This document shows positions 4,195 through 28,849 of a DNA stretch of 43,697 nt, one piece after another. The DNA comes from Chiloscyllium plagiosum (Eukaryota), in the NCBI RefSeq assembly GCF_004010195.1, contig NC_057753.1, forward strand, positions 11,491,179 through 11,534,875, in the 5' to 3' direction. Each line of letters starts with the position of its first letter. Position 1 is the stretch's first letter. A program made the position numbers and the translations under genes. A model generated the notes under the pieces. It saw only the letters and a program-made list of their open reading frames with translations. It was not told the DNA's origin and did no database searches.

Positions 4195-4549
4195 AGCACG
4201 TTCTGAAACTGACCAAGGATCCTGCCAGGCTTGGATAACATGGTAATGTTACAACATGGGGTAAACCTTTCTGCTAATTAAACCTGGCACACAGAAAAGC
4301 TCACCTCGCACCGTGATCTGTATAAGTATGACTGACAAAGAACTACTAAATCCCACCATTTAAAGAAAAAAATTCACAATTTATTCTTTAACTCCAAGAA
4401 AAAAAATTAAACAACTATCTACACTGTAATCTTCCTTTGTCTGATCGATTTATCTACCTCCCACTCTACAACACTAAACTGATCCGATTAAGTTTAAAAT
4501 TTGATTTTCTTGTTAAAACCAGTCAGCTGGGTCGATTCTTATCTGTATC

Positions 4550-4763
4550 GAGATGGAAATGTGTTGCTGGAAAAGCGCAGCAGGTCAGGCAGCATCTAGG
4601 GAACAGGAGAATCGACGTTTCGGGCATTAGCCCTTCTTCAGGAAAAGGGCTAAGGCCCGAAACGTCGATTCTCCTGTTCCCTGGATGCTGCCTGACCTGC
4701 TGCGCCTTTCCAGCAACACATTTCCATCTCTGATCTCCAGCATCTGCAGACCTCACTTTCTCC
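4550..4763. mobile_element. Family A fold-back hammerhead element
   Basis: About 85 bp inverted arms centred near 4640; perfect 13-bp TSD TCTTATCTGTATC at 4537-4549 and 4764-4776. Confidence 0.9.
4611..4645 (-). ncRNA. Minimal type-I hammerhead ribozyme motif
   Basis: Minus strand CUGAAGA-A-GGGC-UAAU-GCCC-GAAACGUC; intact core with palindromic ACGU stem III; stem I weak. Confidence 0.65.
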
Positions 4764-5702
4764 TCTTATCTGTATCTTCCTGGCTTCTTTTCTTCGGTCT
4801 TTCGCTTCACAGATTTCATAGGAAAACGTGCCTTTCAGAGATTGTCTCTGCAGGCCGTCTCTTTGTTGGTGCTCTTTGCTCTGGCTAACTGCCTGATTTT
4901 TATACCCCCAAAAGTCAGACTATCGCATTGGTTTGATGTGGTCAAAACAGAAATTCAAATTTGATTGGATTTTCATATCTTCAGGCATAACTTAAACTGA
5001 TTTTGGCCAAATTCAAATTTGTTGTGTCTCATAGCAACTCAGCTCAGCTATTTGTTTCACAGCCAAATATTACATTTTTAAATTTTTCAGCACACTCTGT
5101 GCCTTTCTAGGTCCGTGCCAGCTTTCAGTCTCTCTTAAAGATACAGTACACACCTACCCCTTCATAACAGTAGTCTGGTGTTCGCTCAAATTTCACGTCC
5201 TGTTTTCTCTGTCCTTCATTGATCTCCCTGTTCCCACAGGGTTAAGATGTCTGTTCTCAGCTATGCTAGATTTCTGCTTTGACCCACACCCCTCCCTTTA
5301 CACCTTCCAGATCAATAAAACATTCAGTCAATCAAAGCCCAACTCTCAATCTCCAAGCATGTCAATCATCTAGTCATTGTAGCAGGGAATACAAGTGAAA
5401 CAAGATTAGAAATAAATACATAGTTGGGGCTTGTGCTCCATTTTATGTTCATTAAGATGTAAACCAGAAACCAGGGTCTCCCAGGATTCTTATAGGGGAG
5501 GAATTCTCTCTCACCTCCATCTCACTTTTAGTACTGAGTTATGATTTATAACAATATTTACATCAACAGAAATAAAGCATCTGTTAACTGTTCCAATCAA
5601 ATACTATTTGTTAAGATGAAATAGTTCATAAAATAAGCAATTTCTACACAGTGCCCAGCATTGCTTCCACAGTTAAAATGCTTTTTAACAGCCCATTATT
5701 AT

Positions 5703-6040
5703 GGAGAGACGATGGCCTGGAGGTATTATCGCTGGACTGTTAATCCAGATACCCAGGTAATGTTCTGGGGACCCGGGTTTGAAAACTGCCACGGCAGATG
5801 GGGAATTTAGATTTAATATATGCTGACCATTAATCCATTTTCGATTGTCGGAAAAACCCATCTGGTTCACTCATGTCCTGGAGGGAAGGAAGCTGTCGTC
5901 CTTGCCTGGTATGGCCTACACGTGACTCCAGACCCACAGAAATGTGGTTGACTCTTAACTGCCCTCTGGGCAATTAGGGATGGGGCAATAAATGCTGGCC
6001 TGGCCAGGGATGCCCTCACCCCATGAATAAATTTTAAAAA
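5703..6040 (+). mobile_element. tRNA-derived SINE with LINE-derived tail (SacSINE1-like by recall)
   Basis: tRNA-like head with a B-box-like GGTTTGAAAAC; tail GCAATTAGGGATGGGGCAATAAATGCTGGCC...CCCATGAATAAAT plus A-run; tail shared with 28850-29085. Confidence 0.7.
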
Positions 6041-6203
6041 AACATTGTCTTCCCAGGATACAGGACATTTGCTGCTCTCACCTACCAAAACTATCCTGAA
6101 ACTAATTGCACTGATACTCTGGTTAAACAGGAAGATTATCATGGGAGCCATCTACACAAAAATCTCCATTTCATGTTCTTTGGGTCACCCAAGGATCGAA
6201 ATG

Positions 6204-6341
6204 ATTTGGAGGTGCTGGTGTTGGACTGGAGTGGGCAAAGTTAAAAATCACACAACATCAGGTTATAGTCCAACAGGTTTATTTGGAAGTCCTTCCAAAT
6301 AAACCTGTTGGACTATAACCTAGTGTTGTGTGATTTTTAAA
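6204..6341. mobile_element. Family B fold-back element (collapsed hairpin)
   Basis: About 50 bp near-perfect inverted arms meeting at GGAAG-TC-CTTCC (6285-6296); TSD CAAGGAT(C/A)GAAATG at 6190-6203 and 6342-6355. Confidence 0.85.
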
Positions 6342-6421
6342 CAAGGATAGAAATGCAAGGACATATTTCTCCAAACTTCGTGTTTGACTTGCCCTTGAAT
6401 TTAGAGTGTTCCATGATATAG

Positions 6422-6631
6422 GGGTTGGGAGTGTGATGCTGGAAAAGCACAGCAGGTCAGGCAGTATCCAAGACAGCAGGAGAATCGACGTTTCAGGCAT
6501 AAGCCCTGATGAAGGGCTTATGCCCGAAATGTTGATTCTTCTGTTCCTCGGATGCTGCCTGACCTGCTGTGCTTTTCCAGCATCACACTCCCAACTGTGA
6601 TCTCCAGCATCTGCAGTCCTTACTTTCTCCC
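6422..6631. mobile_element. Family A fold-back hammerhead element
   Basis: Inverted arms centred near 6509; perfect 15-bp TSD TGTTCCATGATATAG at 6407-6421 and 6632-6646. Confidence 0.9.
6506..6538 (+). ncRNA. Minimal hammerhead ribozyme motif
   Basis: CUGAUGA-A-GGGC-UUAU-GCCC-GAAAUGUU; the 5' strand of stem I is lost at the fold-back junction. Confidence 0.55.
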
Positions 6632-7171
6632 TGTTCCATGATATAGTATTTAATTATCATCCATCAAAAGCAGTGTCCAGTCTTGTCTGAGTGCAGAGCC
6701 AACTCAACTGACCCAACAAGCTGCATAACCCTTCTGTCTGTTCTTTAGATGTGACATCCTCTTTCTCTGTTGACCCAACCGGATGACTCTCTGGTACTCA
6801 TCCACATCTTTATACTGCTTAACCTAAGTATTTAAAAGCAGCTAGCCTGAGCTTCCACAAACAATGGGATGGTTGTGGCACACAAAAAAAGGGCACGTTC
6901 ACCCGTCATGTCTGTGTAAGGAATAAATTTCAACTAGAATTGTTCACAAAATAACAGCTACACAACTCTCTGTGTTTCCCCTGTCACAGATGCTGGACAG
7001 AGGAGCAAATTTCAGTGAATCTGGAACCATGTGCTTTGTTTGAACTAAAACTGCATGACTTGGAGGGAAATGAAAAGAAGGCATTTTGCTAAGTGTCCTG
7101 CCCACTGCCCACTGCACCAGGTTCGCGCAGCCGCAGTGCGGGCTTGCTGGCCAGCGCGAGCACGCGGTCTA

Positions 7172-7431
7172 GAGCAGGCGCAGTTCGGGCTCGCTGCCTC
7201 GGGCGGGCCTGATGTGCGGAGCAGGCGCAGTGCGTTCCCTCTGTCTAGCTCTTGCCCGCCGTCCGGAGCAGGCGCAGTGCGGACCCGCTGTCCGGAGCAG
7301 GCGCAGTGCGTCCCCTCTGTCTAGCTCTTGCCCGCCGTCCGGAGCAGGCGCAGTGCGTTCCCTCTGTCTAGCTCTTGCCCGCTGTCCGGAGCAGGCGCAG
7401 TGCGGACCCGCTGTCCGGAGCAGGCGCAGTG
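7172..7431 (+). repeat. CpG-rich minisatellite in the ZNF gene 2 promoter/5'UTR
   Basis: GAGCAGGCGCAGT core present 7 times; units start at 7218, 7265, 7294, 7341, 7388 and 7417 (47/29/47/47/29 bp). Confidence 0.9.
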
Positions 7432-7481
7432 TGAGCTGCCTGTCCAGCAGTGAATGCAGGAAGAGTGCCAGCTGTGCAAAG

Positions 7482-8146
7482 GTATGGTGTCCATCTCTTT
7501 CTCAGAGACATTGACATCCTCTTATTCTCTCAGTTTGAAATATTTGCTTGGCTTCAAAGGCTGACATTCCTCATGTTCACCGTTGCAATTTTACTTTGCA
7601 GAGGGAGACCCCGTTTGAGTGATACAAAACAGAGCCATGTCTTATGTGCTACGCTTCTGACTTTTGTTTGTGGTTCTCTCATCGTCATTTCCAATTATTT
7701 CTGGTCCCGTGAGGGGATTCAACAAATGTTGCACATATTTCCAGTAATGGAAAGTATTCAGCAAATCAACTGCTCACTAACCCAGCTGCCCCCATGTATC
7801 CTTCCCAACTCCCTCTATCCCTGCAATTCTATTTCTGCCAAATACCCATCCAGTTTAGTTTTGTTATCATTAATGATCTTTACTTCCGTCTTGCTCGCAG
7901 GCAGAGAATTCCAGAGAGTCCCAAACTGTTTCTCAAGCTAAGAAACAGTGTATAGTATGCAACATAGTTATTTAGAATTTGTCTTTCAGTTTGAATCAGC
8001 AGGAAGATTAGTTACAGCAGATATGGGATGGTGGTTTACAGAGTTTTGGCAGATATGAGAGAACAGATTGTTCTGTGGATTATTCTCTTTGCTCCAAATT
8101 CCTAACCAGGACTGACACAGATGACTTTTCTAATCTCCTTTTACAG
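7482..8146 (+). other. Probable 5'UTR intron of ZNF gene 2
   Basis: Donor AAG|GTATGG at 7481/7482; acceptor TTTTCTAATCTCCTTTTACAG ending at 8146 with a CTAAT branch point. Confidence 0.55.
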
Positions 8147-8387
8147 GCTACTGAGGGGGAGGATGATTTTGAAATGGAAATCTCAAACCAAACCGAACAT
8201 CAGTTCATCGGGAACTGAACGTGTGGGCCTTTGAGGGGAACCTCAGTTCTGTTTGCTTCAGACTGGTAAAAGCAACAAACACACACCTGAGTGACAGTTT
8301 CACAGTGATTTGACCGTGGGTAGAGGTTTACCCATTGGACGGGCGAAAGAAATCGCACCGAGCACATGTTCTAAGGGCACTCCCTCC

Positions 8388-9146
8388 ATGGAGAAACCGT
8401 GGAAATGTGGGGACTGCGGGAAAGTGTTCCCAACACCGTCCGCGCTGGAAACTCACCGGCGCAGTCACACGGGGGAGAGGCCGTTCACTTGCTCAGTGTG
8501 TGGGAAGGGATTCACACAGTCGAGCCACCTGCGATTGCACCAGCGGGTTCACACTGGAGAGAAGCCATTCACCTGCTCGGTGTGCGGGAACGCTTTCCGT
8601 GACTCGGGCAGCCTTCAGAAGCACCAGCGATTCCACACGCGGGAGAAGCCGTTCACCTGCTCTGTGTGCGGGAAGGGATTCGGTCAGTCGTCCAGTTTAC
8701 GCAGACACCAGAGCAGCCACACTGAGGACAGGCCTTACAAATGCTCTGACTGCGGGGCTGCTTTCAAGAGCTCCTGGGACTTGATGCTGCACCAGCGCAT
8801 CCACACTGAGGAGAGGCCATTCGGCTGCTCCCACTGCGCCAAGAGGTTTAAAACGTCGTCTGAGCAGCAGCGACATCAGCGGGTTCACACTGGGGAGCGG
8901 CCGTCTGTCTGTCCCGTCTGCGGGAAGGGCTTCGTTCAGTCCTCTGGCCTGCAGAGGCACCGGCGGGTCCACACCGGGGAGAGGCCGTTCATCTGCTCCG
9001 TCTGTGGGAAGGCCTTCACCCAGTCCACCAACCTGCGGACCCACCAGCGCATTCACACCGGGGAGAGGCCGTTCTCCTGCTCCGAGTGCGGGAAAGGATT
9101 CACTCAGCTGTCCAACATGGTGTCGCACCAGCGCGTTCACAAGTGA
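8388..9146 (+). CDS. Tandem C2H2 zinc-finger protein, 9 fingers, 252 aa, no effector domain
   Basis: ATG at 8388 ([12 protein letters not shown]); nine CxxC-x12-HxxxH repeats with TGE(R/K)PF-type linkers; TGA ends at 9146. Confidence 0.92.
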
Positions 9147-9447
9147 TTGCGGGGTTGGGGGAGATGGAGGTTGGTTTGATTCTGCCTGAGAGCCACATCC
9201 GGGACTCGACCCTGCTCACTTTGACATTGGGAGAGGAGGGGGCGGAGGGTTCGGACAAGCCGCTCTCTCACCCACTTTACTTCCAGAGGGGGCTGACACT
9301 CTCTGAGTCTGGGACTGCACCTTCCCTATGGAAACGATCCGCAGGAACACAAGAAGGACATTTTGTATTGTGGATGGAGCATATTATTTGTCCGACCACT
9401 GCAGTTAGATCGGAAATAGACATATTTCCGGGAAATAGACATCTCTG

Positions 9448-10325
9448 GGAGAAAGTGAGGGCTGCAGATGCTGGAGATCAGAGCTGAAAAATGTGTTGCT
9501 GGAAAAGCGCAGCAGGTCAGGCAGCATCCAGGGAGCAGGAGAATCGACGTTTCGGGCATAAGCCCTTCTTCAGGAATGAGGAAAGTGTGTCCNNNNNNNN
9601 NNNNNNNNNNNNNNNNNNNNNNNNNNNNNNNNNNNNNNNNNNNNNNNNNNNNNNNNNNNNNNNNNNNNNNNNNNNNNNNNNNNNNNNNNNNNNNNNNNNN
9701 NNNNNNNNNNNNNNNNNNNNNNNNNNNNNNNNNNNNNNNNNNNNNNNNNNNNNNNNNNNNNNNNNNNNNNNNNNNNNNNNNNNNNNNNNNNNNNNNNNNN
9801 NNNNNNNNNNNNNNNNNNNNNNNNNNNNNNNNNNNNNNNNNNNNNNNNNNNNNNNNNNNNNNNNNNNNNNNNNNNNNNNNNNNNNNNNNNNNNNNNNNNN
9901 NNNNNNNNNNNNNNNNNNNNNNNNNNNNNNNNNNNNNNNNNNNNNNNNNNNNNNNNNNNNNNNNNNNNNNNNNNNNNNNNNNNNNNNNNNNNNNNNNNNN
10001 NNNNNNNNNNNNNNNNNNNNNNNNNNNNNNNNNNNNNNNNNNNNNNNNNNNNNNNNNNNNNNNNNNNNNNNNNNNNNNNNNNNNNNNNNNNNNNNNNNNN
10101 NNNNNNNNNNNNNNNNNNNNNNNNNNNNNNNNNNNNNNNNNNNNNNNNNNNNNNNNNNNNNNNNNNNNNNNNNNNNNNNNNNNNNNNNNNNNNNNNNNNN
10201 NNNNNNNNNNNNNNNNNNNNNNNNNNNNNNNNNNNNNNNNNNNNNNNNNNNNNNNNNNNNNNNNNNNNNNNNNNNNNNNNNNNNNNNNNNNNNNNCGCTT
10301 TTCCAGCAACACATTTTTAAGCTCT
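9448..10325. mobile_element. Family A element with inverted arms spanning an N gap
   Basis: Full 3' end on the minus strand at 9448-9592; inverted arm end CGCTTTTCCAGCAACACATTT at 10296-10318. Confidence 0.8.
9541..9578 (-). ncRNA. Minimal type-I hammerhead ribozyme motif (best-preserved family A copy)
   Basis: Minus strand CAUUC-CUGAAGA-A-GGGC-UUAU-GCCC-GAAACGUC|GAUUC. Confidence 0.7.
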
Positions 10326-10544
10326 ACATTTGTCTCTGTCCCATTGAGTCTCCAGCACAGGGCCAGGCCAGTCGGCTCAGTTGGCCTCTGTCGGTGTTTA
10401 CGCTACACCTGAGCCTCCCACCCCTTTTTATCTCCTCCCACCATCCGCATATCATATCCTTCTGTTCCTTTCTCACTCGTGTCTGTACCCAGCTCCCTCT
10501 TTAATTGGATTCCCCCCTTCAACTCCTTCCCCTCCGTCAGTGTA

Positions 10545-10830
10545 CAGCTATCCCCTGCTGTCCACTAGCCGAGCGTTCCTGTGAAACCTCTGGTAAGCCG
10601 AAATGGTGGAAAGCGAAGAAGCGATTACCATTAGTTCGCCTTTTCTCGCAAAAGCGAAAATCCTCTTCGGATTTCCTCTGGTTAGCAAAAACAGGTACCA
10701 GATTCTGGATTAGTGGTGCTGGAAGAGCACAGCAGTTCAGGCAGCATCCAAGGACAGGTACCAACCTACCAGCCTTTCGTACAAGGGAAGTGGGCGTAAA
10801 CCGAGCTTCCGCCAAGTGGGGGTGTGCCTG
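10545..10830. mobile_element. Degenerate Tigger/pogo-type MITE
   Basis: TA flanks at 10543-10544 and 10831-10832; imperfect TIRs CAGCTATCCCCTGCT / AGTGGGGGTGTGCCTG. Confidence 0.45.
10701..10753 (-). mobile_element. 53-bp family A-related fragment with its own TSD
   Basis: GTGCTGGAAGAGCACAGCAGTTCAGGCAGCATCC flanked by ACAGGTACCA at 10691-10700 and 10754-10763. Confidence 0.75.
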
Positions 10831-10837
10831 TATCTTG

Positions 10838-10982
10838 TAGAGCTCTCAAGGATAGTGGAATCAAGGGTTATGGAGATAAGGCAGGAACAGGATACTGATT
10901 AAGGATGATCAGCCATGATCACATTGAATGGTGGTGCGGGCTCGAAGGGCTGAATGGCCTACTCCTGCACCTATTGTCTATT
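10838..10982 (+). mobile_element. CR1 3' end
   Basis: Near-identical to 31-178. Confidence 0.8.
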
Positions 10983-11778
10983 GTTCGGAAGAAGGCCAGA
11001 CATGAGTTGCTTTCCAGATGAAGCAGGAGGGTGAATCCGAATCGCCCGGGCCCTGCTCCGGCCCCCAGCCCCTTTGGGATTCGGTCACAGATGTGCACCA
11101 GCGACAAGGTCAGGCACTCTCTTCAAGAGGAGCAACAGCAAGGATGAGCCCCGCGGTTGGAGGGGGGCGGCAGGAGGTCCCCAAACCCGATGGTGCTACC
11201 GGACTCCGTGTCGACGGGCGGGGGGGGGGGGGCGGATAAGGCGGGAGTGGGACAGAGTCTTTCAGGAGCTGTCAGCGAGAGCAAGGACTTCTCCGAACCC
11301 CCCTCCCGGGGAGGCCAGCAATTGGAGTTTGACCCTCATCCGAGGAGGGACATATACCTCTGTCCCTCCTCCTGGGCCCCCACCGATACAAGAGACTGCT
11401 GCTCGGTGTCAGATTTCCGCACACGGTTTGCATTCAGTGATACAAGGGGACCCCAGTGTCTCCAAGGGGGGGATTGGAGTAGATGGATAGGAACGTGGCT
11501 GGGATTAGTATTGACTCGAGCAGGACGTACGGTCTGTCGGAGACAAACTACTCGCTGGCTGTGGCACTGCTAACTCACGAGCGGTGAAATCAACCCCAGC
11601 CGGGGAAAAAAAAAGCAACAAAATTACGTTGGACTGGGATGTGACTGGCAATTTGTAATCGCAAATTGCTTAGTGAGTTGTGGTTTGTTCAATTTGTTCA
11701 CAAACTCTCTGGCACTCGCTTTGTAAATGTGCAACAGTAGAATATGTGTGTTTCCTCTGGTTCAGAGGAGGTGGTCAT

Positions 11779-12230
11779 GGCGGCTCAGTGGTTAGCACCG
11801 CTGCCTCACGGCGCCAGGGACCCTGGTTCGATTCCAGCCTCGGACCAACTGTCTGTCTGTGTGGAGTTTGCACATTCTGCCATGCTAAAGGTTAGGGTGG
11901 ATTGTCTGTGCTAAATTACCAGTAGTGCCCAGGGATGTGCAAGTTAGGGTGAGTTGGCCATGCTCAGTTGCCCTGTAGCATCCAGGGATGTGTAGGTCAG
12001 GGTGGATTGGCCATGCTAAACTACCCATAGTGCCCAAGTATGTACAGGTTAGAGTGGATTGGCCATGCTAAATTACCAATAGTGCCCAAGGATGTGCAGG
12101 TTAGGTGAGTCAGCCGTGGTTAAAAACCCCATGAGGGGTTACGGAAAGGGATGGGATGCTCTTCAGTGGGTCCTTGCAGTCTCAGTGGGCTGAATGGCCT
12201 ACATCCGGACTGTAGGATTCTACAATTCTA
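11779..12230 (+). mobile_element. HE1-type tRNA SINE with an internal ~50-bp tandem expansion
   Basis: GGCTCAGTGGTTAGC A-box and GGTTCGATTCC B-box; about 5 copies of GGTTAGGGTGGATTGGCCATGCTAAATT...GGATGTGCA. Confidence 0.8.
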
Positions 12231-12329
12231 TGTGGTTGCAATGGGGATCAGAGCTGGGTACTAAATATCCAAGGCGGGCAGATAGGGCAAACCCGTAGGC
12301 GAGAAATTACATCAATAGCAAGACGTGAT

Positions 12330-12705
12330 ATAGAGTCATAGAGATGCTCAGCACCGAAACAGACCCTTCAGTCCAACTCGTTCACGTCGACCAGATATCC
12401 CTAAATTAGTCTGGTTTATCAGCATTTGGCCCATATCCCACCAAACTCTTCCTAGTCATGTTCCCATCCAGATGCCTTTTAAATGCTGTAATTGTACCAG
12501 CCTCCATCACTTCCTCTGGCAGCTCATGTCAGACACACACCACCCTCTGCGTGAAATAGTTGCCCCCCGCCCCCCCCCCTTCCCCCAGGTCCCTTTTAAA
12601 TCTTTCCCCTCTCACTCCCACCCTATGGTCCTCTAGTTCTGGACTCCCCTACCCCTGGGGAAAGTCTTTGTCTGTTTATCCTATCCCTGCCCCTCACAAT
12701 TATAT
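12330..12705 (-). mobile_element. CR1 3' fragment
   Basis: Reverse complement of the CR1 terminal region seen at 14054-14355. Confidence 0.75.
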
Positions 12706-12882
12706 GAACCAGAGTCAGAAGACGTAGAATCTGTGTGGGTAGAGTTCAGGAACTACGAAAGAAAAAAGAAGACAGTGATGGGAGTCAGGATGCGGGGAAG
12801 AAAATAAATCCAAGGATTAAAAAGGCATGTAAGAAAAGCACTATTACAATAATCACAGGGGACCTCAATATCATCAATCACA

Positions 12883-13160
12883 GGCGGCTCAGTGGTTAGC
12901 ACCGCTGCCTCACAGCACCAGGGACCCAGGTTCGATTCCAGTCTCGGGCGACTGTCTGTGTGGAGTTCGGACATTCTCCCCGTGTCTGCGTGGGTTTCCT
13001 CCAGTCTCCTCTCACAACCCAAACATGTGCGGGTCAGGTGAATTGGCCATGCTAAATTGCCCATGAGTCAGAGGGAATTGGGTCTGGGTGGGTTGCCCTT
13101 CGGCGGGTCGGTGCGGGGCCGAAGGGCCTGTTTCCAACCATGTAGGGAATCTAATCTAAT
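12883..13160 (+). mobile_element. HE1-type SINE
   Basis: A and B boxes; tail GGGCCTGTTTCC...TAGGGAATCTAATCTAAT. Confidence 0.85.
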
Positions 13161-13592
13161 AATATATGCAGGTGGGCTGGGGAAAATCAGTTTGATAGCA
13201 GATCTCAAGAAAAGAAGTTCACGGAATGGGATTTTGGAACAGCTTGTGGTAGAGCCCACCAGGGAACCGGCGATTCTGGATTTGGTGATGCCTAACGAGG
13301 CAGACTTGATTAGGGAGCTTAAGTTGAAGGAACCCCTCTGGGGGAGAAACTGTAATACAAGAGAATTCCCCCTGCCTTTTGAGAGGGAGAAGCTGGAATC
13401 AGATATAACCGTCTTACAACGAGTACAGGTAACTCCAAAGACATGAGAGAGGAGCTGCCCAGAGTTGATTGGGAGGGGGAGCCAAACAGGGACGATGGTG
13501 GAGCAGTAAGGGCAGGGATTTCTGGGGATAATATCGAAGGCACAGCAGAAATTCATCCCAAGGAAGACGAAACATACTAAGGGGAGGATAAG

Positions 13593-13787
13593 CGCAGCAG
13601 GTCAGGCAGCATCCAGGGAACAGGAGAATCGACGTTTCGGGCATAAGCCCTTCTTCTTATGCCTGAAGAAGGGCTTATGCCCGAAATGTCGATTCTCCTG
13701 TTCCCTGGATGCTGCCTGACCTGCTGCGCTTTTCCAGCAACACATTTCCAGCTCTGATCTCCAGCATCTGCAGACCTCACTTTCTCC
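13593..13787. mobile_element. Family A fold-back hammerhead element
   Basis: Inverted arms centred near 13660; core CTGAAGA-A-GGGC-TTAT-GCCC-GAAATGTC at 13663-13690; 16-bp TSD CTAAGGGGAGGATAAG at 13577-13592 and 13787-13802. Confidence 0.9.
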
Positions 13788-13904
13788 TAAGGGGAGGATA
13801 AGGCAACTACGGCTGACAAGAGAAGCCAAAGTCAACATAAAAGTAAAAGAAAAAGCACGCAATGTGTTGGTGATAAGTGGAAAGCCTTTAAACACCAGCA
13901 GACG

Positions 13905-14855: not shown

Positions 14856-14924
14856 TGAGGGTAAGCTAGCTAGTAATATAAAAGAAGATCGCAAGAATTT
14901 TTTAAAAGATCTATTAAAGGTAAC

Positions 14925-15688
14925 CATGCTGTGGAGGTGCTGGTGTTGGACTGGGGTAAACAAACTTAAAAATCACACAACACCAGGTTATAGTCCGTCA
15001 GGTTTATTTGGAAGCACTAGCTTTCGGAGCGCCGCTCTTTCGTCAGATAGCTAGCGGGACAGGATCATAAGACACAGAATTTAGAGTAAAAGATCACTGT
15101 CATATAATTGAAATGAAACCTGCAATCCATTCTAAAAGATGAAAAACGTAACAGTATCGCATGCACACACACATTCTCCTTCTCTACCCCTCTCTCTCTC
15201 ACACATACACACAAGTCTGTGGGGTGAATTTGCATTTGAAGAATTATATTAGCAGATACATCCTATTTTTGCTCAAAAAGCGCACAACCTGCAGGTAGTC
15301 AATTATGTATAACATTTTATCAATTCCTACTTTGGAGATCGACCCAGTCTGACTCTAAATTGGGATACAGACAGACTCGAACCAACCTGTAATGCATTGT
15401 CTGAGCTGAGATGTTACTTTTTTTTTTACAAAACCTTAAGTTATCTCAAGAATGTGACTTAAAAGTAGTTCTGGGATTTACATATTAATGAACCGAAACC
15501 TGCAACCCATTCTAAAAGATGAAGGACTTAACAGCAATCAAGGTTTGTTCAATATATTGTTTCAATTGCATGACACTGTGAGCTTTTGCTATAAATTCTG
15601 TGTCTTATGATCCTGATGAAGGAGCAGCGCTCGTCCTTCCAAATAAACCCTGTTAGACTTTAACCTGGTGTTGTGTGATTTTTAACCT
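14925..15688. mobile_element. Family B element with inverted arms
   Basis: 14968-15115 is the inverse of about 15560-15686; TSD TAT(T/A)AAAGGTAA at 14912-14923 and 15689-15700. Confidence 0.85.
15015..15049 (-). ncRNA. Minimal hammerhead ribozyme motif (family B)
   Basis: Minus strand UAU-CUGACGA-A-AGAGC-GGC-GCUCC-GAAAGCUA|GUG; palindromic AGCU stem III; 3-bp stem I. Confidence 0.65.
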
Positions 15689-15804
15689 TATAAAAGGTAA
15701 GGGTGAGGCAAGAGTGTATATGAGGCAGGAGAAATATTAATGGGGAATGAAGAAATGGTGGAGGAATTTCTATTTTCTGATGACATTGGCATTTAAGATT
15801 TGAC

Positions 15805-16042
15805 AGAGTCTAGATTAGAGTGGTTCTGGAAAAGTACAGCGGGTCAGGAAGCATCCGAGGAGCAGGAAAATCGACATTTCAGGCAAAAGCCCTTCATCAG
15901 GGATGGACATTTCTGATAAAGGGCTTTTGCCCGAACCGTCGATTTTCCTGCTCCTCGGATGCTGCCTGACCCGCTGTACTTTTCCAGAACCACTCTAATC
16001 TAGATTCTTGTTTCCAGCATCTGCAGTCCTCGGTTTTACCCC
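15805..16042. mobile_element. Family A (variant subfamily) fold-back element
   Basis: Inverted arms centred near 15906; minus-strand core CTGATGA-A-GGGC-TTTT-GCCT-GAAATGTC; TSD TTTAAGATTTGAC at 15792-15804 and 16043-16055, repeated again at 16059. Confidence 0.88.
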
Positions 16043-16289
16043 TTTAAGATTTGACCCCTTTAAGATTTGACAGACTGTTTCCTAAGCAAGGGTGATTCGT
16101 TTGAGATTTTCCCCACCGGATTAAAAAGTCTAGCCCAGCTACAGGGATGATTTAACATCAGAAATAAACCACAGCTGTCAGCCTGAACATGGTTCAAATT
16201 TGGATATCATTGACAGCAGCAACGTCATCTTTGCTCAGTTCCCGGAGTCAAATGTGAACATTTGTCCATTGGAAACTTTCCCTGGTGTT

Positions 16290-16885: not shown

Positions 16886-17255
16886 TGAAAATGGGATGAG
16901 TGAGTGAATCCTGTGGCTCACGCCAAACATGCTGCTCCCTAATATGGGTTTGTTGGCAGAGTTACTGAAGTCCTTCCCACATTTAAATGACCTTTCTCCA
17001 ATCTGAAGGGACAGGTTTGCCAGCATGTTGGCTTATGGAGTGAATTTCTGCCCACAGATCTGGACGGCTATATGAATAGGAAAGGTTTAGAGGCGTGTGG
17101 GCCAAATGTTGGCAAATGGGACTAGATTAATTTAGGATATCTGTTTGGTATGAACGAATTGGACTGAAGGACTGTTGCCATGCTGTACAGCGCTATTGCT
17201 CTGAGACGGAGCAGATGTGATTGAGCTCAATGAATGAATGTACCGTTCCCACAGT

Positions 17256-17665
17256 TAAGAATCACACCACTCCAGGTTATAGTCCAACGGGTTAATTTGG
17301 AAGCACTAGCTTTCCAGAGCACTGTTCTTTTATCAGGTAACTGTGGAGCAGGATCACCAAGACACAGAATGTATAGCAAAAGATGTCGGTGTCATGTAAT
17401 TGAAGTGAAACCTGCAACCCATTCTAAACGATGAAAGACTTAACAGCATCACATGCGCACACACACACACACTCTCTCTCTCTCTCTCTCCCCTACATGT
17501 GTGCATGTGCACACACACACACAAAAGTGAATTTGCATTTGCAGAATGAAGGAGCAGCGCTCCAAAAGCTAGTGCTTCCAAATAAATCTGTTGGACTATA
17601 ACCTGGTGTTTGTGTGATTTTTCACTTTGTCCGCCCCAGACCAACACTGGCTCTTCCACATCATG
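17256..17665. mobile_element. Family B element with inverted arms
   Basis: 17256-17335 is the inverse of 17546-17625; degenerate hammerhead cores in both arms; TSD TTCCCACAGT at 17246-17255 and 17668-17677. Confidence 0.85.
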
Positions 17666-17954
17666 CCTTCCCACAGTGTGGACACGCTGGTGTCACAGCA
17701 AGATAGAGGCATCTCGGAACCTCTTCCCCACAAGCAGTCAAAGGGCAACCTCACTGGTGTCGAAGTGGGACAGATGAGCGAGTGAATCCTTTACGATATA
17801 CATTGCAGGTGAACAGCTTATGCCCTGTGTGGCCATGTGGTTGAGTTTACTGTTTGGTGATTTCCCCAGAATCCCCCCTCCTGCCATATTCATACAGCTC
17901 ATTCCAAGTCTGGTTACAGTTGTCCATCACCAGGCTTTGGTGAGCAGTTCATTG

Positions 17955-18210
17955 TATTCATAGTAATAGAAGCAGGAGTGGGCCATTTGGCCCGTCCAGC
18001 CGCTCCCCCATTCATTAAGATCACAGCTGATCTATCCATTGTCTCAGCTCCTCCTCCCTGCATTATCCCCATAGCCCTCAATTCCCCTATAATGCAAAAA
18101 CCCATCACTGTGTCGTGAATATATTTACGAAGCTGCATCTACCGCTTCCTTGGGCAGAGAATTCCATAGATTCACTACTCTCTGGGAAAAGCAGTTCCTC
18201 CTCATCTATG
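17955..18210 (-). mobile_element. CR1 3' fragment
   Basis: Minus-strand GGGCCAAATGGCCCACTCCTGCTTCTATT tail. Confidence 0.65.
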
Positions 18211-18764: not shown

Positions 18765-19340
18765 TGGCACAGTGGTTTACACTGCTGCCTTCACAGCGCC
18801 AATGAGTCATGTGGAGTTTGCAATATTTCCTTCCACGTCTACATGGATTTCCTCTGGGTGCTCTGGTTCCCTCCCACAGTGGAGAAAGTGAGGGCTGCAG
18901 ATGCTGGAGATCAGAGCTGAAAATGTGTTGCTGGAAAAGCGCAGCAGGTCAGGGGATTTCCTCTGGGTGCTCTGGTTCCCTCCCACAGTGGAGAAAGTGA
19001 GGGAGTGCAGATGATGGAGATCAGAGCTGAAAATGTGTTGCTGGAAAAGCGCAGCAGGTCAGGCGGCATCCAGGGAACAGGAGAATCGACGTTTCGGGTT
19101 CCTGAAGAAAGAGCTTATGCCCGAAACGTCGATTCTCCTGTTCCTTGGATGCTGCCTGACCTGCTGCGCTTTTCCAGCAACACGTTTTCAGCTTCCCTCC
19201 CACAGTCCAAGGATGTGCAGTTTAAATGGATAGGCCATGCTAAAGAATTGCCCCCTAGTGTCTGCAAATGTGCAGGTTAGGTGGGTTACCCATGCTTAAA
19301 AACCCAACGTGGGGTTACGGAATGGGTGTGGGATGCAGAC
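18765..19340 (+). mobile_element. HE1-type SINE interrupted by a family A palindrome
   Basis: GGCACAGTGGTTTACACTGCTGCC head; SINE body resumes at CTCCCACAGTCCAAGGATGTGCAG after 19192. Confidence 0.75.
18990..19192. mobile_element. Family A fold-back hammerhead element
   Basis: Inverted arms centred near 19100; perfect 14-bp TSD TTCCCTCCCACAGT at 18976-18989 and 19193-19206; left junction duplicated (109 bp, 18845-18953). Confidence 0.88.
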
Positions 19341-21075: not shown

Positions 21076-21081
21076 CGGTCT

Positions 21082-23972
21082 TAGAACATAGAACATTACA
21101 GCGCAGTACAGGCCCTCGATGTTGTGCCGACCTGTGAAACCAGTCTGAAGCGCTCCTAACCTACACTATTCCATGTATGTCCATAGTCTTGCCCAATGAC
21201 GACTTAAATGTACTTAAAGTTGGCGAATCTACTACCGTTGCAGGCAAAGCATTCCATACCCTTACTACTCTCTGAGTAAAAAAACTACCTCGGACATCTG
21301 TCCTATATCTGTCACCCCTCAATTTAAAGCTATACCCCCTCGTGCTCGCCGTCACCATACTTGTAAAAAGGCTCTCCCTATCCACCCTATCTAACTCTCT
21401 GATTATTAGATTAGATTAGATTAGATTAGATTAGATTACTTACAGTGTGGAAACAGGCCCTTCGGCCCAACAAGCCTTTCCAAAGCTTCCACATCCTTCT
21501 TATAATGCAGTGACCAGAACTGTACACAATACTCCACAATGCGGCCGCACCCAGAGTTTTGTACAGGTGCAGCATAACCTCATGGTTCCGGAAATCGATC
21601 CCTCTATTAATAAAAGGCAAACACTGTATGCCTTCTTAACAACCCTGTCAACCTGGGTGGCAACTTTCAAGGATCTGTGTACATGGACACCGAGATCCCT
21701 CTGCTCATCTACACTACCAAGAATCTTACCATTAGCCNNNNNNNNNNNNNNNNNNNNNNNNNNNNNNNNNNNNNNNNNNNNNNNNNNNNNNNNNNNNNNN
21801 NNNNNNNNNNNNNNNNNNNNNNNNNNNNNNNNNNNNNNNNNNNNNNNNNNNNNNNNNNNNNNNNNNNNNNNNNNNNNNNNNNNNNNNNNNNNNNNNNNNN
21901 NNNNNNNNNNNNNNNNNNNNNNNNNNNNNNNNNNNNNNNNNNNNNNNNNNNNNNNNNNNNNNNNNNNNNNNNNNNNNNNNNNNNNNNNNNNNNNNNNNNN
22001 NNNNNNNNNNNNNNNNNNNNNNNNNNNNNNNNNNNNNNNNNNNNNNNNNNNNNNNCCACCACCCTCTGTCTTCTTTCAGCAAGCCAATTACTGATCCAAA
22101 CTGCTATATCTCCCACAATCCCATTCCTCCACTTTTTGTACAATAGCCTACTGTGGGAAATCTTATCGAAAGCCTTGCTGAAATCCATATACGCCACATC
22201 AACCGGTTTACTCTCATCTACCTGTTTGGTCACCTTCTCAAAGAATGCAATAAGTTTTGTGAGGCATTACCTATCCTTCACAAAACCGTGCTGACTATCC
22301 CTAATCAAATTATTATTTTCTAGATGATTATAAATCCTATCTCATATAACCTTTTCCAACACTTTACCAACAACCAAAGTCAGGCTCACTGGTCTATAAT
22401 TACCAGGGTTGTCTCTACTCCCCTTCTTGAATGGGGGAACCACATTTGCTATCTTCCAGTCCTCAGGCACTATTCCTGTAGACAATGACGATTTAAAGAT
22501 CAATGCCAAAGGCTCGGCAATCTCCTCCCTGGCTTCCCAGAGGATCCCAGGATAAATCCCATCCGGCCCAGGGGACTTATCTATTTTCACACTCTGCAGG
22601 ATTTCTAATACCTCTTCCTTGTGAACCTCAATCCCACCTAGTCTAGTAGCCTGTATCTCAGTATTCTCCTTAACAACATTGTCGTTTTCTAGAATGAATA
22701 CTGTCAAAAAATATTCATTTAGTGCTTCCCCTATCTTCTCTAACTCCACACACAACTTCCCACTACTATTCTTGATTGGCCCTAATCTTACTCTCATCAT
22801 TCTTTTATTCCTTAAATACCAATAGAAAGCCTTAGGGTTAACCCTGATCTTATCCGCCAACAACTTCTCATGTCTCCTCCTGGCTCTCCTGAGCTCTCTT
22901 TAGATCTTTCCTGGCACCTTCTAACCCTCAAGCGCCCTAACTGAGCCTTCACATCTCATCCTAACATAAGCCTTCTTCTTCCTCTTGACCAGAGATTCCA
23001 CTTCCTTCGTAAACCACGGCTCCCGCGCTCTACAGCTTCCTCCCTGCCTGACAGGTACATACTTATTTAGGACACACAGGAGCTTTTCCTTGGATAAGCT
23101 CCACATTTCTAATGTGCCCATCCCCTGCAGTTTCCTTCCCCATCCTATGCTTCCTAAATCTTGCCTAATTGCATTGTAATTGCCTTTCCCCCAGTAGTAA
23201 CTCTTGCCCAGTGGTATACACCTATCCCTTTCTATTACTAAAGTAAACGTAACAGAATTGTGATCGCTATCACCAAAGTGCTCACCTACTTCCAAGTCTA
23301 ACACCTGGCCGGGCTCATTACCCAGTACCAAATCTAATGTGGCTTCGCCCCTTGTTGGCCTGTCTACATACTGTGTCAGGAAGCCCTCCTGCATACACTG
23401 GTCAAAAACTGACCCAACCCATCTATAGTACTCGTACTATAGTGTTCCCAGTCAATATTTGGAAAGTTGAAGTCCCCCATGACAACTACCCTGTCTCTCT
23501 CACTCCTATCGAGAATCATCTTTGCTATCTTTTCCTCTACATCTCTGGAACTATTCGGAGGCTTATAGAAGGGTGACCTCTCCTTTCCTGTTTCTAACCT
23601 CAGCCCATACTACCTCAGTTGATGAGTCCCCAAGCATCCTTTTTGCAACTGTAATGCTGTCCTTGACCAACAATGCCACATCTCCCCCTCTTTTACCATC
23701 TTCTCTGTTCTTACTGAAACATCTAAATCCTGGAACCTGCAACAACCATTTGTGTCCCTGCTCTATCCATGTCTCCGAAATGGCCACAACATCGAAGTCC
23801 CAGGTACCAACCCATGCTCCAAGTTCACCCACTTTATTCCGGATGCTTCTGGCATTGAAGTAGACACACTTCAAACCAACATCTTGCTTGCCGTTCAGAT
23901 GTAGACCATCTTGGTTGTAGAGGTCTCACCTACCCCCGAAAGAGCCCCAATTATCCAAGAATCCAAAACCCT
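21082..23972 (-). mobile_element. Long decayed CR1 LINE (ORF1 esterase end, ORF2 APE endonuclease and RT, 3' tail)
   Basis: ORF1 FLDNWGSF..DLYNQDGLHLN (23890-23972); CVYFNARSIRNK..DVVAISETW; DSDHN; KSPGPDGI; NYRPVSLT; VDVAYMDFSKAFDK; multiple frameshifts; (TAGAACA)n tail. Confidence 0.92.
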
Positions 23973-24174
23973 TCTTCACTATCCTGAGGAAATGCAAGGA
24001 TTACTTGCCCTAAGAAGACAATAGTACAACTATTGCAGAGATGCCCCAATGATGCTGCTGTCTGTATTCTCGGAGGTTCTGACCCCGACAGTGAATAAGA
24101 ATACAGTATAACCAGTTCAAAGGCACTTGGAGTTGATGCATTCCCATCCTGAACTTCATATTACGTGTAAGCTG

Positions 24175-24375
24175 CTGTTATGGACTAGGCCAGACCACTC
24201 AAAACGTTCTTAAGCAGGCAGCCCAGACTGTAACTTTGCAATTTGTTTCGGCAAAGTGCACAGTGAAAATTACCCAGAGTAAGTTAGCTAGGTTGACTAC
24301 CTAGGTTTTAAAACAGACAAAGGTTTATTCATAGTACAGTACAGAGGTACAGTACACCTTACACCTTCATAAGAC
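24175..24375 (-). mobile_element. Internally deleted LTR-like fragment
   Basis: Starts TGTTATG; ends TACAGTACACCTTACACCTTCATAA, similar to the end of 4247-5169. Confidence 0.4.
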
Positions 24376-24377
24376 AA

Positions 24378-24775
24378 CTGTGTGGAGTTAGCACATTCTC
24401 CCTATGTCTGCGGGTGTTTCCTCTGGTTGCTCAGGTTTCCTCACACAGTCCAAAGATGTGTAATGTGTAGGTTAAGGTGGATTGGTCATGCTAAATTGTC
24501 CCATGGTGCCCAGGGATGTGTAGTTTAGTGTGGATTGGCCATGCTAAATTACCCATAGTACCCAGGGATGTGCAGGTTAGGGTGGATTGACTATGCTAAA
24601 TTATCTATAGTGCCCAGGCTTATGTAGGTTAGAGTGGATTGGCCGTGCTAAATTACGCATAGTGTCCAGGGATGTGTGGGTTGGGTGTATTAGTCAGGGG
24701 AAATGAATCATAATAGGTAGGGGAATGGGTCGGTGTGGACTTGTTGGGCCAAGTGGCCTGATTCCGCACTTGTAG
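24378..24775 (+). mobile_element. 5'-truncated HE1-type SINE with a ~50-bp tandem expansion
   Basis: Four copies of GTGGATTGGCCATGCTAAATTACCCATAGTGCCCAGGGATGTG. Confidence 0.75.
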
Positions 24776-26096
24776 ATGTTCAGGATGATGAATGGCTTGT
24801 AAAGGAACTTTCAGGTGGCAGCGTTCCCAAACGTTGCCCTCATCAGGTATGGATTTGCAAGGCACTTCCAAAGCAGCCTTGGTGGCCCTCCCGTAACAGG
24901 CATCAGCGGTGGAGAGAATGATTGTTTGGGGTTGGCGGGTGGGCCACTAATCAGAGTGAGCTTCTTTGATCTGGACGGCATTGAGCCCTCTTGGACGTTG
25001 TTGAAACCGCAATCATCCAAGTGACTGGAGAGCATTCCCTGACTTGTGCCTTGTCGATGGCAGACAAGGTCTGGGAAGTCAAGAGACAAGCTACGTGTGG
25101 TATTCGCAACCTCGGACTCCACCTGAAGGAACTCCTGCAGCAATGTCCCAGAACGGAGATGATCGCATCCCCAACCACCATCTTCCTCTGTGCTGGGTAC
25201 GACTCCAGCCAGCGGGCAGTTTTCTAACAAATCCCAGTAGCTTCGACTTCACTCAGGTTCTTTGATACTGCACCAAGATTAATGCTCATCGACGCCAAAG
25301 GCAGCTTCGCTGAACTCGCCTCAAAGTCAAAAGAAAACGTTTCCAGTTCTGGCTCAACCTGAAACCGAGGATTGGAGAACGGAGTAACAAACAAATCCAG
25401 TCTGGAATTCAAGAGAAACTCCCTTCACTCGGAATGGTTAGTATGCGGAACTCCCAAGCATCACGTAATTGAGTCAAGTAACATGGATGCATTAAATAGG
25501 AAGCTAGGCGCAGACATGAGAGACAAAGGCAGGAGGATTGCGTGCTGCAGAATTTGATGAAGCAGGGAGACTCGTTTGGAATATAAACTCTAATGAAGCT
25601 CTGTTGGCCCAGTGGTCTAGTTCTCTGCCAAAATCTTGATTTTGTTTTAACTTCAATCACCATCACATGCTAATTGCTGCATTTCTGTATGTCCTCAGGT
25701 CAATAATTTGCCTTATCCCTCCTCCCATACAAGTTTTTCACTGTTGATATGGTGCAGCAGAACCTGAGGGGACACACAAGGCCAACAAAGGAGGCTTAGC
25801 ATTCCTTAAGATACTTTTTCACATCCTTTGTACGTTCTAGTTCAGCTTTTACTTGTCATTGCTTGACATAGTCGCAGACCATGATTGAAAAGTGAAACTA
25901 CCACGCTGATAGGTGTACATAACATATTGATTGTTTAACCATGTATTGATTGTTTAAGCAGTGCTATGGTGTAAAGTGATAGCCCGGGTGTCTCTGGAGA
26001 AGGAGCACGTGGTGTCCACCAACACCCTCGAGCTGTTCAGGGAGAGGTGGGAACCGCGGGGAGTGGAGTGCATTATTTCCCCCTCCAACTCCCCCG

Positions 26097-26400
26097 GGCA
26101 GCACAGTGGTTAGCACTGCTGGCTCACAGCACCAGGGACCTGGGTTCAGTTCCCGCCTCGGGTGACTGTCTGTGTGGAGTTTGCACGTTCTCCCCATGTC
26201 TGTGTGGGTTTCCTCCGGGTGCTGCGGTTTCCTCCCACAGTCCAAAGATATGCAGGTCAGGTGGATTGGCCATGGGAAATTGCCCGTCGTGTTAGGTGGA
26301 TTCGTCAGGGGTAAATATTGGGGGGTAGGTTTCTCTTTGGAGGGTCGGTATGGACTTGTTGGGCCGAAGGGCTTGTTTCCACACTGTAGGTAATCTAAAA
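26097..26400 (+). mobile_element. HE1-type SINE
   Basis: GGCAGCACAGTGGTTAGCAC head; GTTTCCACACTGTAGGTAATCT tail. Confidence 0.85.
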
Positions 26401-26924
26401 AAAAATTCTATTTTGATTTAATCCCTGCCCTCCCCTTCACTGTTTGATCACACAGCACTGTTTGTCACTGGCCACTTGGGTGTTTCTTTTCTTCCTGGAG
26501 GTGGGAATTGAATCAAGATTTGTGCACCTTGTGTCTTTCACTGTGTCTCATACCTGCAAACACACAACAAGGGTGCGGGGAGAAAAATAAGCACTACCGC
26601 AGTTAGGCGGTAGTGTGGGGGGGTAAAAAAAGAAAAAAAAACAGGAGTGTCAGAGGTTCTGTTCACTCTAAAATAAAGCGATAGAGATGGAAAAATTGGG
26701 AGAATGCAACCGGGTCTCTACAGGAAGCAGGGAGTGGGGATGCACAGCCCAAGTAACCGCCAGGCTCGGTGGATACGTAGCAGATTTCGATGGCCAGCCC
26801 ATCATCAGAAATGGAAGCTGAGATGTTGAGAAAGGGAATTGATAAGTCAGTGATGGACCCGGCGAAGGTTACAACAAGACAGAAATCAAAAACTGTCTTA
26901 AGTTTTCAAATTCTAAGGGACAGC

Positions 26925-27025
26925 AGGAAGCAGGGCTTTTGCCCGAAATGTCGATTTTCCTGCTCCTTGGATGCTGCCTGACTTGCTGTGCTTTTCCAGC
27001 ACCACTCTAAATCTCGACTCTGATC
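26925..27025 (+). mobile_element. Family A single-arm fragment
   Basis: AGGGCTTTTGCCCGAAATGTCGATTTTCCTGCTCC...; begins at stem II. Confidence 0.75.
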
Positions 27026-27492
27026 ACTAGAGTGAGTGAGATGTCTTCCCAAGAAAGATTGCATGAGCCACGAGTAGTGTTAGACTGAAAGGACTGAATG
27101 GGTACTTGAAGGCCTGATCAAAACGATTCCAAACAGAAATGTGTGCTCCAAAACAGAGCAACTTTATTCACTGAATCTACTTTAGGTACACGCAAACTAA
27201 TGAATGACTGTATCAGCTTAAAAGACTTTTGATACAGTCAACAAGTGAGTCTCACTGCCTTGTCGTCACATCGGGGTCTCCTGGGTGATGGCTGTCACTT
27301 TCAGCTCTATCTCCATTCCCATGATCTGGTCTCTCAAACCCCAGTCTGATAGTGAAGGTCTCTCAAGCTGGGAAAAGTCCCCATTGTTAATACTGTTCTG
27401 ATTTGGATATGACATGCTGTATTGCAGTCCCTGAGTACCTTTCCCACTCATTCCACAAACAGGTGGATGTGTCTCTGTGTCTTTGGACAACA

Positions 27493-28371
27493 GTCTGTTC
27501 CCAAGACCAGCCAAGGTCATTGCAGTTACCGTACAACCAGAACGGCCCGTGTTTACCCAAAACCTGTTTCTCACATATTCTCCTTTCAATTGCTTATTGC
27601 CATGCACAATTAACCCTTAACAATCTGGGCTGGAGACATTTTCCTCCCTCATTGACACAAGGCTTGATCACGTGGAATCCAGGGAGAGCTAGCCAATGGG
27701 ACACAAAATTAGCCTGACGGTAGGAGACCGAGGATGGTGGTGGACGACTGGTACTCAGGCTGAGTGCTGAGAGAACCTGAGGACTGCAGATGCTGGAGGT
27801 CAGAGTCGAAAAGTGTGGTGCTGGAAAAACACAGCAGGTCTGGCAGCATCTGAGGAGCAGGAGAGTCGAGATTTCAGGCATAAGCCCTTCATCAGGAATG
27901 TGATGAAGGTCTTATGCCCGAAACGTCGGCTCTCCGTCTGTTCCCAAGACCAGCCAAGGTCATTACCGTACAACCAGAACGGCCCGTGTTTACCCAAAAC
28001 CTGTTTCTCACATATTCCCCTTTCAATTGCTTATTGCCATGCACTATTAACCCTTAACAATCTGGGCTGGAGACATTTTCCTCCCTCATTGACACAAGGC
28101 TCGATCACGTGGAATCCAGGGAGAGCTAGCCAATGGGGCACAAAATTAGCCTGACGGTAGGAGACCGAGGATAGTGGTGGACGACTGGTACTCAGGCTGA
28201 GTGCTGAGAGAACCTGAGGACTGCAGATGCTGGAGATCAGAGTCGAAAAGTGTGGCGCTGGAAAAGCACAACAGGTCTGGCAGCATCTGAGGAGCAGGAG
28301 AGTCGAGATTTCAGGCATAAGCCCTTCATCAGGAATGTGATGAAGGTCTTATGCCCGAAACGTCGGCTCTC
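27493..28371. repeat. Two-copy tandem duplication, about 440 bp
   Basis: 27493-27935 repeated at 27936-28371 with a few SNPs and a 6-bp indel. Confidence 0.9.
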
Positions 28372-28428
28372 CTGCTCCTCAGAGGCTGCCGGACCTGCTG
28401 TGCTTTTCCAGCGCCACACGTTTCGACT
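28205..28428. mobile_element. Family A fold-back element (older subfamily); partial duplicate at 27768-27935
   Basis: Inverted arms centred near 28337; degenerate TSD ACTCAGGCTGA/ACTCAGATTGA; empty paralogous site at about 35398-35422. Confidence 0.85.
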
Positions 28429-28849
28429 CAGATTGAAGGCCTGTGACCAGCGGTGTGCCGCATGGTTTGGTTCTAGATCCACTGTATTTCAACATGCATA
28501 TAAATTATTTGGATGGGACTAGTTGGTTATAAAGTTTGCAGATGACACCAAATTTGGTGGTCTAGTTTAAGAGGAAGGAGGTTATCTGAGAGTACAATGG
28601 AATAAGCTGGGCAAAGGAATGGCAGATAGAGTATTGCTGAACAAAGAGACCTTGGAGTGTAGGTTCATAGCTCCTTGAAAATGGAGTCGCAGGTAGATAG
28701 GACAGCAAAGGAGACATTTGGTATGCTTTCCTTTATTGTTCAGAGTATTGAGTACAGGAGTTGGATTGGGATATCTGGTTGGCATGGACGAGATGGACCG
28801 AAGGGTCTGTTTCTGTGCTGTACATCTCTATGGAGTTTAATTTAGATTT

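Follow-up and report, generated by a model that had tools for sequence, protein, structure and literature searches.

How does a sequence of about 200 bp that holds no open reading frame (ORF) come to be inserted repeatedly into one locus as two copies of its own end joined head to head? The question is raised by a 43,697-nt stretch of Chiloscyllium plagiosum DNA (contig NC_057753.1; hereafter the window), a C2H2 zinc-finger gene cluster with debris of long interspersed nuclear elements (LINEs) as well as repeats resembling short interspersed nuclear elements (SINEs). A first-pass annotation had described there a family of fold-back insertions (family A) centred on a hammerhead ribozyme motif, assigned them to the pseudo-long terminal repeats (pLTRs) of Penelope-like elements (PLEs), and proposed that each palindrome arose when reverse transcriptase (RT) stalled at the ribozyme and the cDNA snapped back. 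The assignment is maintained here, since the motif features and a longer copy at 2694–3037 make a Penelope-like pLTR with a minimal hammerhead motif the most likely identity of the unit. Regarding the mechanism, the favoured reading, to which a probability of roughly 0.6 is given, is that these are head-to-head insertions of the pLTR ends of an endonuclease-bearing PLE, made by two target-primed cDNAs that start 33–37 nt apart.

Structure of the fold-back insertions

A BLAST search of one arm against the window returned 20 matches, and six complete head-to-head inversions of 195–238 bp were delimited (Table 1), in agreement with the 200–240 bp first estimated; all paired copies in the window have this orientation. 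Exact target-site duplications (TSDs) of 13, 15, 15–16, 13–16 and 14 bp, all different in sequence, flank the first five copies, as had been annotated, and the sixth adds a decayed TSD of 11 bp, the word of which occurs once in an empty paralogous site at about 35403–35413. A shared word of at least 13 nt was found in 29 of 2000 random pairs of 40-nt flanks; repeats within the window raise this figure. Each palindrome is bounded by one TSD pair, with none internal, and the central junctions differ in all six complete copies; the sole repeated junction, at 27771 and 28205, belongs to a local tandem duplicate. With TSDs present and every junction different, the earlier view that the palindromes were made de novo at insertion is upheld. 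The two arms of an insertion diverge by 2–11% over their common body, the long arms differ by 3–28% between copies, and in four of the six insertions the two arms have variants in common that no other copy in the window carries.

Arm geometry and the origin of the second arm

Positions in the element are counted from the A of TCATTC (+1, window 2927), with the hammerhead core from +5, stem II from +13 to +24 and the predicted cleavage site after +32. One tailed and one tail-less arm are paired in 7/7 family A inversions (9448 counted) and in 3/3 inversions of a second family (family B, described below), an arrangement with a probability of about 0.001 over both families if each arm is assumed to choose its site independently with p = 0.5; together with the private variants shared between arms, this pairing suggests coupled priming on one RNA or on one source. 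The short arm had been thought to stop at a variable point, which is not what the alignments indicate: in five of the six copies the long arm extends beyond it by 33, 36, 37, 36 and 36 nt, and in 13593 by 59 nt. This tail of 33–37 nt matches the published Penelope tail, given as 30–40 bp (PMC8557442), 34–37 bp (PMC2377424) and 31 bp (PMC3846280), and supports priming at two sites (here and below, PMC3846280, PMC8557442, PMC11167929, PMC5625713, PMC7761336 and bioRxiv 10.64898/2026.07.22.740005 are cited from those portions of each source that were available). The tail boundary falls at a CT(C/G)TGATC word (about 13755–13765 and 6593–6603); in a stem-loop of the Anolis element Poseidon_Ac (PAc) the same CUGUGAUC follows an AC-rich run (PMC11167929, supplement 1), a likeness short enough to be due to chance.

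The inner ends of the six complete copies lie between 0 and +22, so that the claim of a centre always placed at the motif stands for these copies; it fails for the 9448 arm and for a second family, described below. The farther-reaching arm ends at 0 to +4, the 5′ edge of the ribozyme, in all six. RT meets the ribozyme from its 3′ side (+36 to +24), yet stem II was read through by 11 of 12 arms, and the cleavage site does not coincide with the end of any family A arm. A run-off at a fixed RNA 5′ end fits these positions better than a stall does. The arm that reaches farther inward is the tailed one in three copies and the tail-less one in two, with a tie in 15805; the tail-less arm exceeds the tailed one by 20 nt in 18990 and by 5–9 nt in 4550. 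The junction of 15805 had been considered as a templated insert, an idea dropped because both arms reach position 0.

The second hammerhead-bearing family, family B, has the same design, with inversions at 6190–6355, 14912–15700 and 17244–17677 (6201, 14925 and 17255 below) and single arms at 3438–3958 and 40516–40662. Its short arms all end at +81 and its long arms at +115 to +117, which leaves a tail of 34–36 nt in 3/3 inversions, each again pairing a tailed with a tail-less arm, and its TSDs measure 10–14 bp. At 17255 the long arm is the tail-less one, exceeding the tailed arm by well over 100 nt.

According to the favoured reading, the GIY-YIG nuclease of the element would cut the target with a stagger of 9–16 bp, after which both target 3′ ends would prime RT, the first at the tail end, the second at the tail start; the template would probably be a single RNA, or else RNAs of one source locus. 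When priming takes place on the transcript's first pLTR, both cDNAs would be only 90–130 nt long and would run off the RNA 5′ end, which is predicted at the Inr-like TCATTC, that is, at the ribozyme 5′ edge; their 3′ ends would then be trimmed by 0–20 nt, joined via microhomology or short filler, and filled in. Priming on the last pLTR would instead give the longer forms (2694, 9448). The minimal products would probably be dead ends; the ribozyme is likewise probably a passenger, which marks the 5′ end and does not cause the fold. A more tentative proposal, held with less than even confidence, is that the mini-palindromes are the footprint of the unsolved Penelope step, in which a dimeric RT-endonuclease would prime the two ends of one staggered cut on a single RNA, at sites separated by one tail length, with run-off at a capped 5′ end and end-joining to follow. 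If this is true, it would replace the published model of self-priming on antisense and explain the one-sided tail, and from thousands of genomic copies the start site could be located together with the two priming sites.

The original proposal, in which a single cDNA stops at the ribozyme, folds back and copies itself into the second arm, is poorly supported and is now considered unlikely. Its attractions are that the loops are tiny or absent, with a natural TTC-CT-GAA mini-hairpin at the 4550 centre, that the arms of four copies share private variants, that the tailed arm holds the loop in 6422, 13593 and 28205, as the model needs, and that palindromic junctions have been put down to self-priming in print (PMC3846280). 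These three copies fit self-copying and two primers alike. However, folding back can yield only sequence that the first cDNA already holds, and only a cDNA started at the tail end can have a tail, which is why the model fits poorly: in 18990, the clearest case against it, in 4550 and in family B 17255 the tail-less arm has sequence missing from the tailed one, in 15805 the arms reach the same base, and nearly all arms pass through stem II. Additionally, the stop of the second arm at the tail boundary, seen in 5/6 copies and in 3/3 of family B, is left unexplained.

An improbable variant keeps the two primers and has the inner end fixed not by a transcription start but by how the RNA folds or is processed at the ribozyme, through the stem I boundary, cleavage, or a splice or other cut. 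The coincidence of the inner ends with the ribozyme 5′ edge is in line with it, as is an intron end that maps to the helix I 5′ end in D. virilis. Family B 6201 turns at the predicted cleavage site, and no RNA 5′ end was observed. This explanation is weakened by the lack of any family A arm ending at +32, by a weak stem I and a hammerhead that is not the predicted minimum-energy fold, by TCATTC itself, which we take to match the initiator (Inr) consensus, and by the finding that ribozyme cleavage is dispensable in vitro (PMC11167929).

Amplification of a palindromic master as a unit, either like a miniature inverted-repeat transposable element (MITE) or as a SINE-like hairpin RNA, would account for the uniform size, the dense local clustering, the TSDs and the occurrence among RNA reads, but is very improbable given six different junctions, arms unequal by the tail, TSDs of 9–16 bp, non-inverted and longer copies, and the divergence of the long arms, so that the distinction from MITE amplification drawn earlier is retained. 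That the palindromes formed later, either because longer inverted insertions collapsed or because one copy entered another, agrees with the longer inverted forms (9448; family B 14925 and 17255) and with the known instability of long palindromes, but is highly unlikely, since deletion would not repeatedly place the farther arm in a 5-nt window (0 to +4) and each palindrome has its single TSD pair.

Other copies, the parent element and public reads

Beyond the insertions first listed, further copies were found at 2694–3037, 10701–10757 and about 26924–27015, with local duplicates at 18881–18953 and 27771–27935. The copy at 2694–3037 opens, some 230 nt upstream of its hammerhead motif, with the frame end FTSFLISPPP, and has its terminal repeat downstream of the ORF end. 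At 2890–2905, about 22 nt before the predicted start, it has a pyrimidine tract ending in TAG that resembles a splice acceptor; introns are known in PLE pLTRs. The single tail-less arm at 10701–10757 suggests that the inner start site can prime alone. The tailed arm of 9448 extends upstream past the motif, by 14 nt or more, into an assembly gap; no TSD was found for 9448–10325, and two separate elements are also possible there. Several insertions are adjoined by local tandem duplications (16040–16074, 16 bp; 18845–19062, 109 bp; 27526–28382, 437 bp; and a 12-bp repeat to the left of the 9448 insertion, 9409–9442). These may have arisen as by-products of insertion or through instability of the palindromes, or may be artefacts of assembly.

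The hammerhead motif was recognised by alignment: the core CUGANGA/GAAA/UH, the extra nucleotide before stem II, G10.1–C11.1 and the palindromic 15.2–16.2 are all present. Stem I is weak, with 3/4 pairs where PLE hammerheads have a helix of about 4–5 bp and a dimeric helix III, and the predicted dimer pairs via GUCGAU instead of the catalytic ACGU. The 2927 motif carries a point change in GAAA, with intact examples at 9537–9577 (−) and 4601–4640 (−). Rfam returned no hammerhead family among 11 matches at E ≤ 1, and gave sub-threshold microRNA (miRNA) matches; the pLTR body folds no better than its shuffles (z from −0.7 to +0.2). Paralogous CTGATGA...GAAAC matches at 31242, 37752 and 41780 (−), downstream of zinc-finger ORFs and with no clear stem II, are probably not ribozymes. 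A first pattern scan gave no matches in metagenome and viral contigs; a second pattern gave three metagenome and three genome loci, the latter from Algoriphagus, which were treated as chance, and the one inspected (L001) had no further similarity by eye.

Of the 175 stop-to-stop frames, 86 were scanned with Pfam, all of them clear of gaps and most of them clear of the zinc fingers. None matched a GIY-YIG family, and the sole RT-related matches in them, an AP endonuclease and a weak RVT_1, belong to LINE-type debris. Protein searches with a 40-aa frame spanning the pLTR and a 32-aa frame at 2695–2790 gave no matches, which is weak evidence for queries so short.

Public reads were collected for region 2670–3060 from runs X2, X5, X21 and X17 (organism codes A, B, A and C), with 34,198, 124,342, 1,962 and 5,451 records, respectively, which are not copy numbers. 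Between 2908–2921 and 2950–2963 the depth rose 3.2-fold in X21, 2.9-fold in X17 and 2.0-fold in X2, a step in favour of the run-off. In X21 the depth falls towards 5′, which, like the 5′-truncated copy 2694–3037 with its TSD, agrees with the variable 5′ truncation of PLEs. Among the joints listed, 3/15 lie at 2928–2931, and 2/12 rows of a second joint table lead to 2927. Loose ends are dominated by the 17-nt deletion in the reference copy (2694–3037); those upstream of 2696, in 100 X2 contigs with an agreement of 0.67, extend the frame by hand translation with T-L-Q-P-H-G-I-N, which we take to resemble the C-terminal motif of PLE GIY-YIG domains, a likeness not tool-confirmed. In raw RNA reads of X21, 36 places have A>G and 48 have T>C (X2, 11 and 24; X5, 7 and 22), a hint of adenosine-to-inosine (A-to-I) editing of hairpins, and C>T is also raised in X21 (49, versus 29 in X2 and 34 in X5).

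Several observations weigh against the favoured reading. Run X5 has no depth step (0.7-fold), the step in the other runs could come from subfamilies with upstream sequence less than 80% alike, and only two opposite-strand joints are among those listed. No RNA 5′ end was seen (the start-pileup table was empty), the library not being designed to show 5′ ends, and the turn of family B 6201 at +29/+33 leaves room for a 5′ end that is sometimes set by ribozyme cleavage. Copy 13593 ends off the tail boundary, snap-back or subsequent gene conversion would also leave variants shared between arms, post-insertion deletions can reshape palindrome centres, and the sample is of six copies. Finally, no full-length partner with RT and GIY-YIG was found in the scanned window frames or by the protein searches, so that the link to the nuclease comes from the frame-end motif T-L-Q-P-H-G-I-N.

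Table 1. Family A features in the window; copies are named by the start of the insert, and inner ends are given relative to +1.
Feature	Coordinates	Strand or arms	TSD	Inner ends and remarks
Minimal type I hammerhead	2927–2962 (+1 to +36)	+		CUGA(A/U)GA, one extra A, stem II GGGC/GCCC, GAAAC-GUC
Non-inverted 5′-truncated copy	2694–3037 (344 bp; with flanks 2685–3046)	+	9 bp	Frame's last codons, ~155 nt of 3′ untranslated region, TCATTC/hammerhead (A at 2927), body (17-nt deletion), tail
Fold-back copy 1 (4550)	4537–4776 (insert 4550–4763)	Tail-less (−) 4550–4641; tailed (+) ~4640–4763	13 bp, 4537–4549 / 4764–4776	Tail-less +2, tailed +11 (+7 if a 1-nt deletion is assumed)
Fold-back copy 2 (6422)	6407–6646 (insert 6422–6631)	Tail-less (−) 6424–6510; tailed (+) 6508–6631	15 bp	Tail-less +12, tailed +4; 3-nt junction microhomology
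Fold-back copy 3 (13593)	13577–13802 (insert 13593–13787)	Tailed (+) 13662–13787; short arm (−)	15–16 bp	Tail-less +7, tailed +4 (by eye; aligner −2 owing to 8-nt templated filler); short arm stops 59 nt early, where TSD end and element match in 6/7 nt; junction has 8-nt copy of stem II loop region (13656–13663 = 13674–13681)
Fold-back copy 4 (15805), diverged subfamily	15792–16074 (insert 15805–16042)		13–16 bp	Both arms reach 0, 2 filler nt between; 16-bp tandem duplication on tailed side
Fold-back copy 5 (18990)	18976–19206 (insert 18990–19192)	Tailed (−) 18990–19098; tail-less (+) 19099–19192	14 bp	Tailed stops +22, tail-less starts +2
Upstream neighbour of copy 5	18845–18953			109-bp local duplicate
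Fold-back copy 6 (28205)	28190–28436 (insert 28205–28429)	Tailed (−); tail-less (+)	Decayed 11 bp, 28190–28200 / 28426–28436	Tailed reaches 0, tail-less starts +6; TSD overlaps short-arm end
Partial duplicate of copy 6	27771–27935			Same junction; within 437-bp tandem duplication
Probable longer inverted insertion (9448)	9448–10325, across 703-N gap	Tailed (−) 9448–9592; tail-less end (+) 10296–10325
Single tail-less arm	10701–10757 (with flanks 10691–10763)	−	10 bp	~+39 to tail boundary
Tail-less arm fragment	26924–27015	+	None found

The zinc-finger cluster around these insertions consists of single-exon-like ORFs at 1428–2330, 8295–9146, 31420–33174, 37890–38850 and 41939–43633, of which three are open (283, 584 and 564 aa) and two decayed, and which are partly triplicated with their flanks. 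A GC-rich 47-bp tandem repeat built on the GCAGGCGCAGTG word (7105–7444, also at about 255–275) lies upstream of zinc-finger genes and is possibly a promoter element.

Comparison with known systems

The novelty of these insertions had been overrated, since palindromic junctions, a one-sided tail, TSDs and the self-priming idea are already present in PMC3846280. In that description, a typical Penelope insert has direct pLTRs and an adjacent inverted pLTR, with an overlap of 15 bp and 37 bp shorter, a one-sided tail and a TSD of 8–10 bp, and abundant head-to-head palindromic junctions are read as self-priming. The inverted pLTR pattern was generalised in PMC8557442, the available part of which calls the mechanism of the inverted repeat and one-sided tail undefined. 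As in the endonuclease-positive (EN+) Penelope/Poseidon unit, head-to-head pLTRs, a junction palindrome, a tail at one end, a TSD and 5′ truncation are found here, but the insert consists of two pLTR ends only (~200–240 bp), its TSD measures 9–16 bp rather than 8–10 bp, and its arm geometry argues against the self-priming reading of PMC3846280.

The PAc protein was reported to cut and extend both target strands in vitro, to start RT at two internal sites that bound the tail, to be a predicted dimer and to need no ribozyme cleavage, the ribozyme being ~100 nt upstream of the start sites (PMC11167929). In the available part of that study these activities are not tied to inverted products, and the shark-type element is known here from sequence alone. 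No literature on shark-type minimal palindromes or on a two-primer model of PLE inversion was found, older subscription papers, Dfam and Repbase lying outside the search.

Minimal hammerheads 100–700 bp apart on opposite strands have already been reported (PMC4209133). The present motif shares with PLE minimal hammerheads the core, the extra nucleotide between 9 and 10.1, G10.1–C11.1 and the palindromic 15.2–16.2; it differs in a stem I of 3/4 pairs, in motif pairs that stand back to back or overlap, and in an activity that is predicted only. Non-LTR retrozymes (PMC7761336; bioRxiv 10.64898/2026.07.22.740005) are likewise small, non-coding, PLE-related and equipped with a type I hammerhead, but they form head-to-tail tandem arrays, whereas the present insertions are head-to-head, TSD-bounded and each made anew. 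Nor is there, as in a MITE, a master with true terminal inverted repeats, a constant centre and a fixed TSD length. In annotation, fold-back copies may pass for MITEs or miRNA hairpins, and they could plausibly serve as self-contained double-stranded RNA substrates for A-to-I editing, comparable to a palindromic frog Harbinger repeat (PMC5625713).

The contrast with L1 twin priming had been overstated. In L1 twin priming, two target ends prime cDNA and the junction has microhomology, with templates that adjoin each other on the RNA and do not overlap; in the present insertions a single stretch is copied twice, from fixed sites 33–37 nt apart, and the data fit a route that is otherwise twin-priming-like. 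Being short, fully assembled and abundant, the copies provide a test set in which arm geometry separates self-priming from two-primer models. The architecture being already known, they are likely the smallest form of the published PLE pattern and not a new self-copying element.

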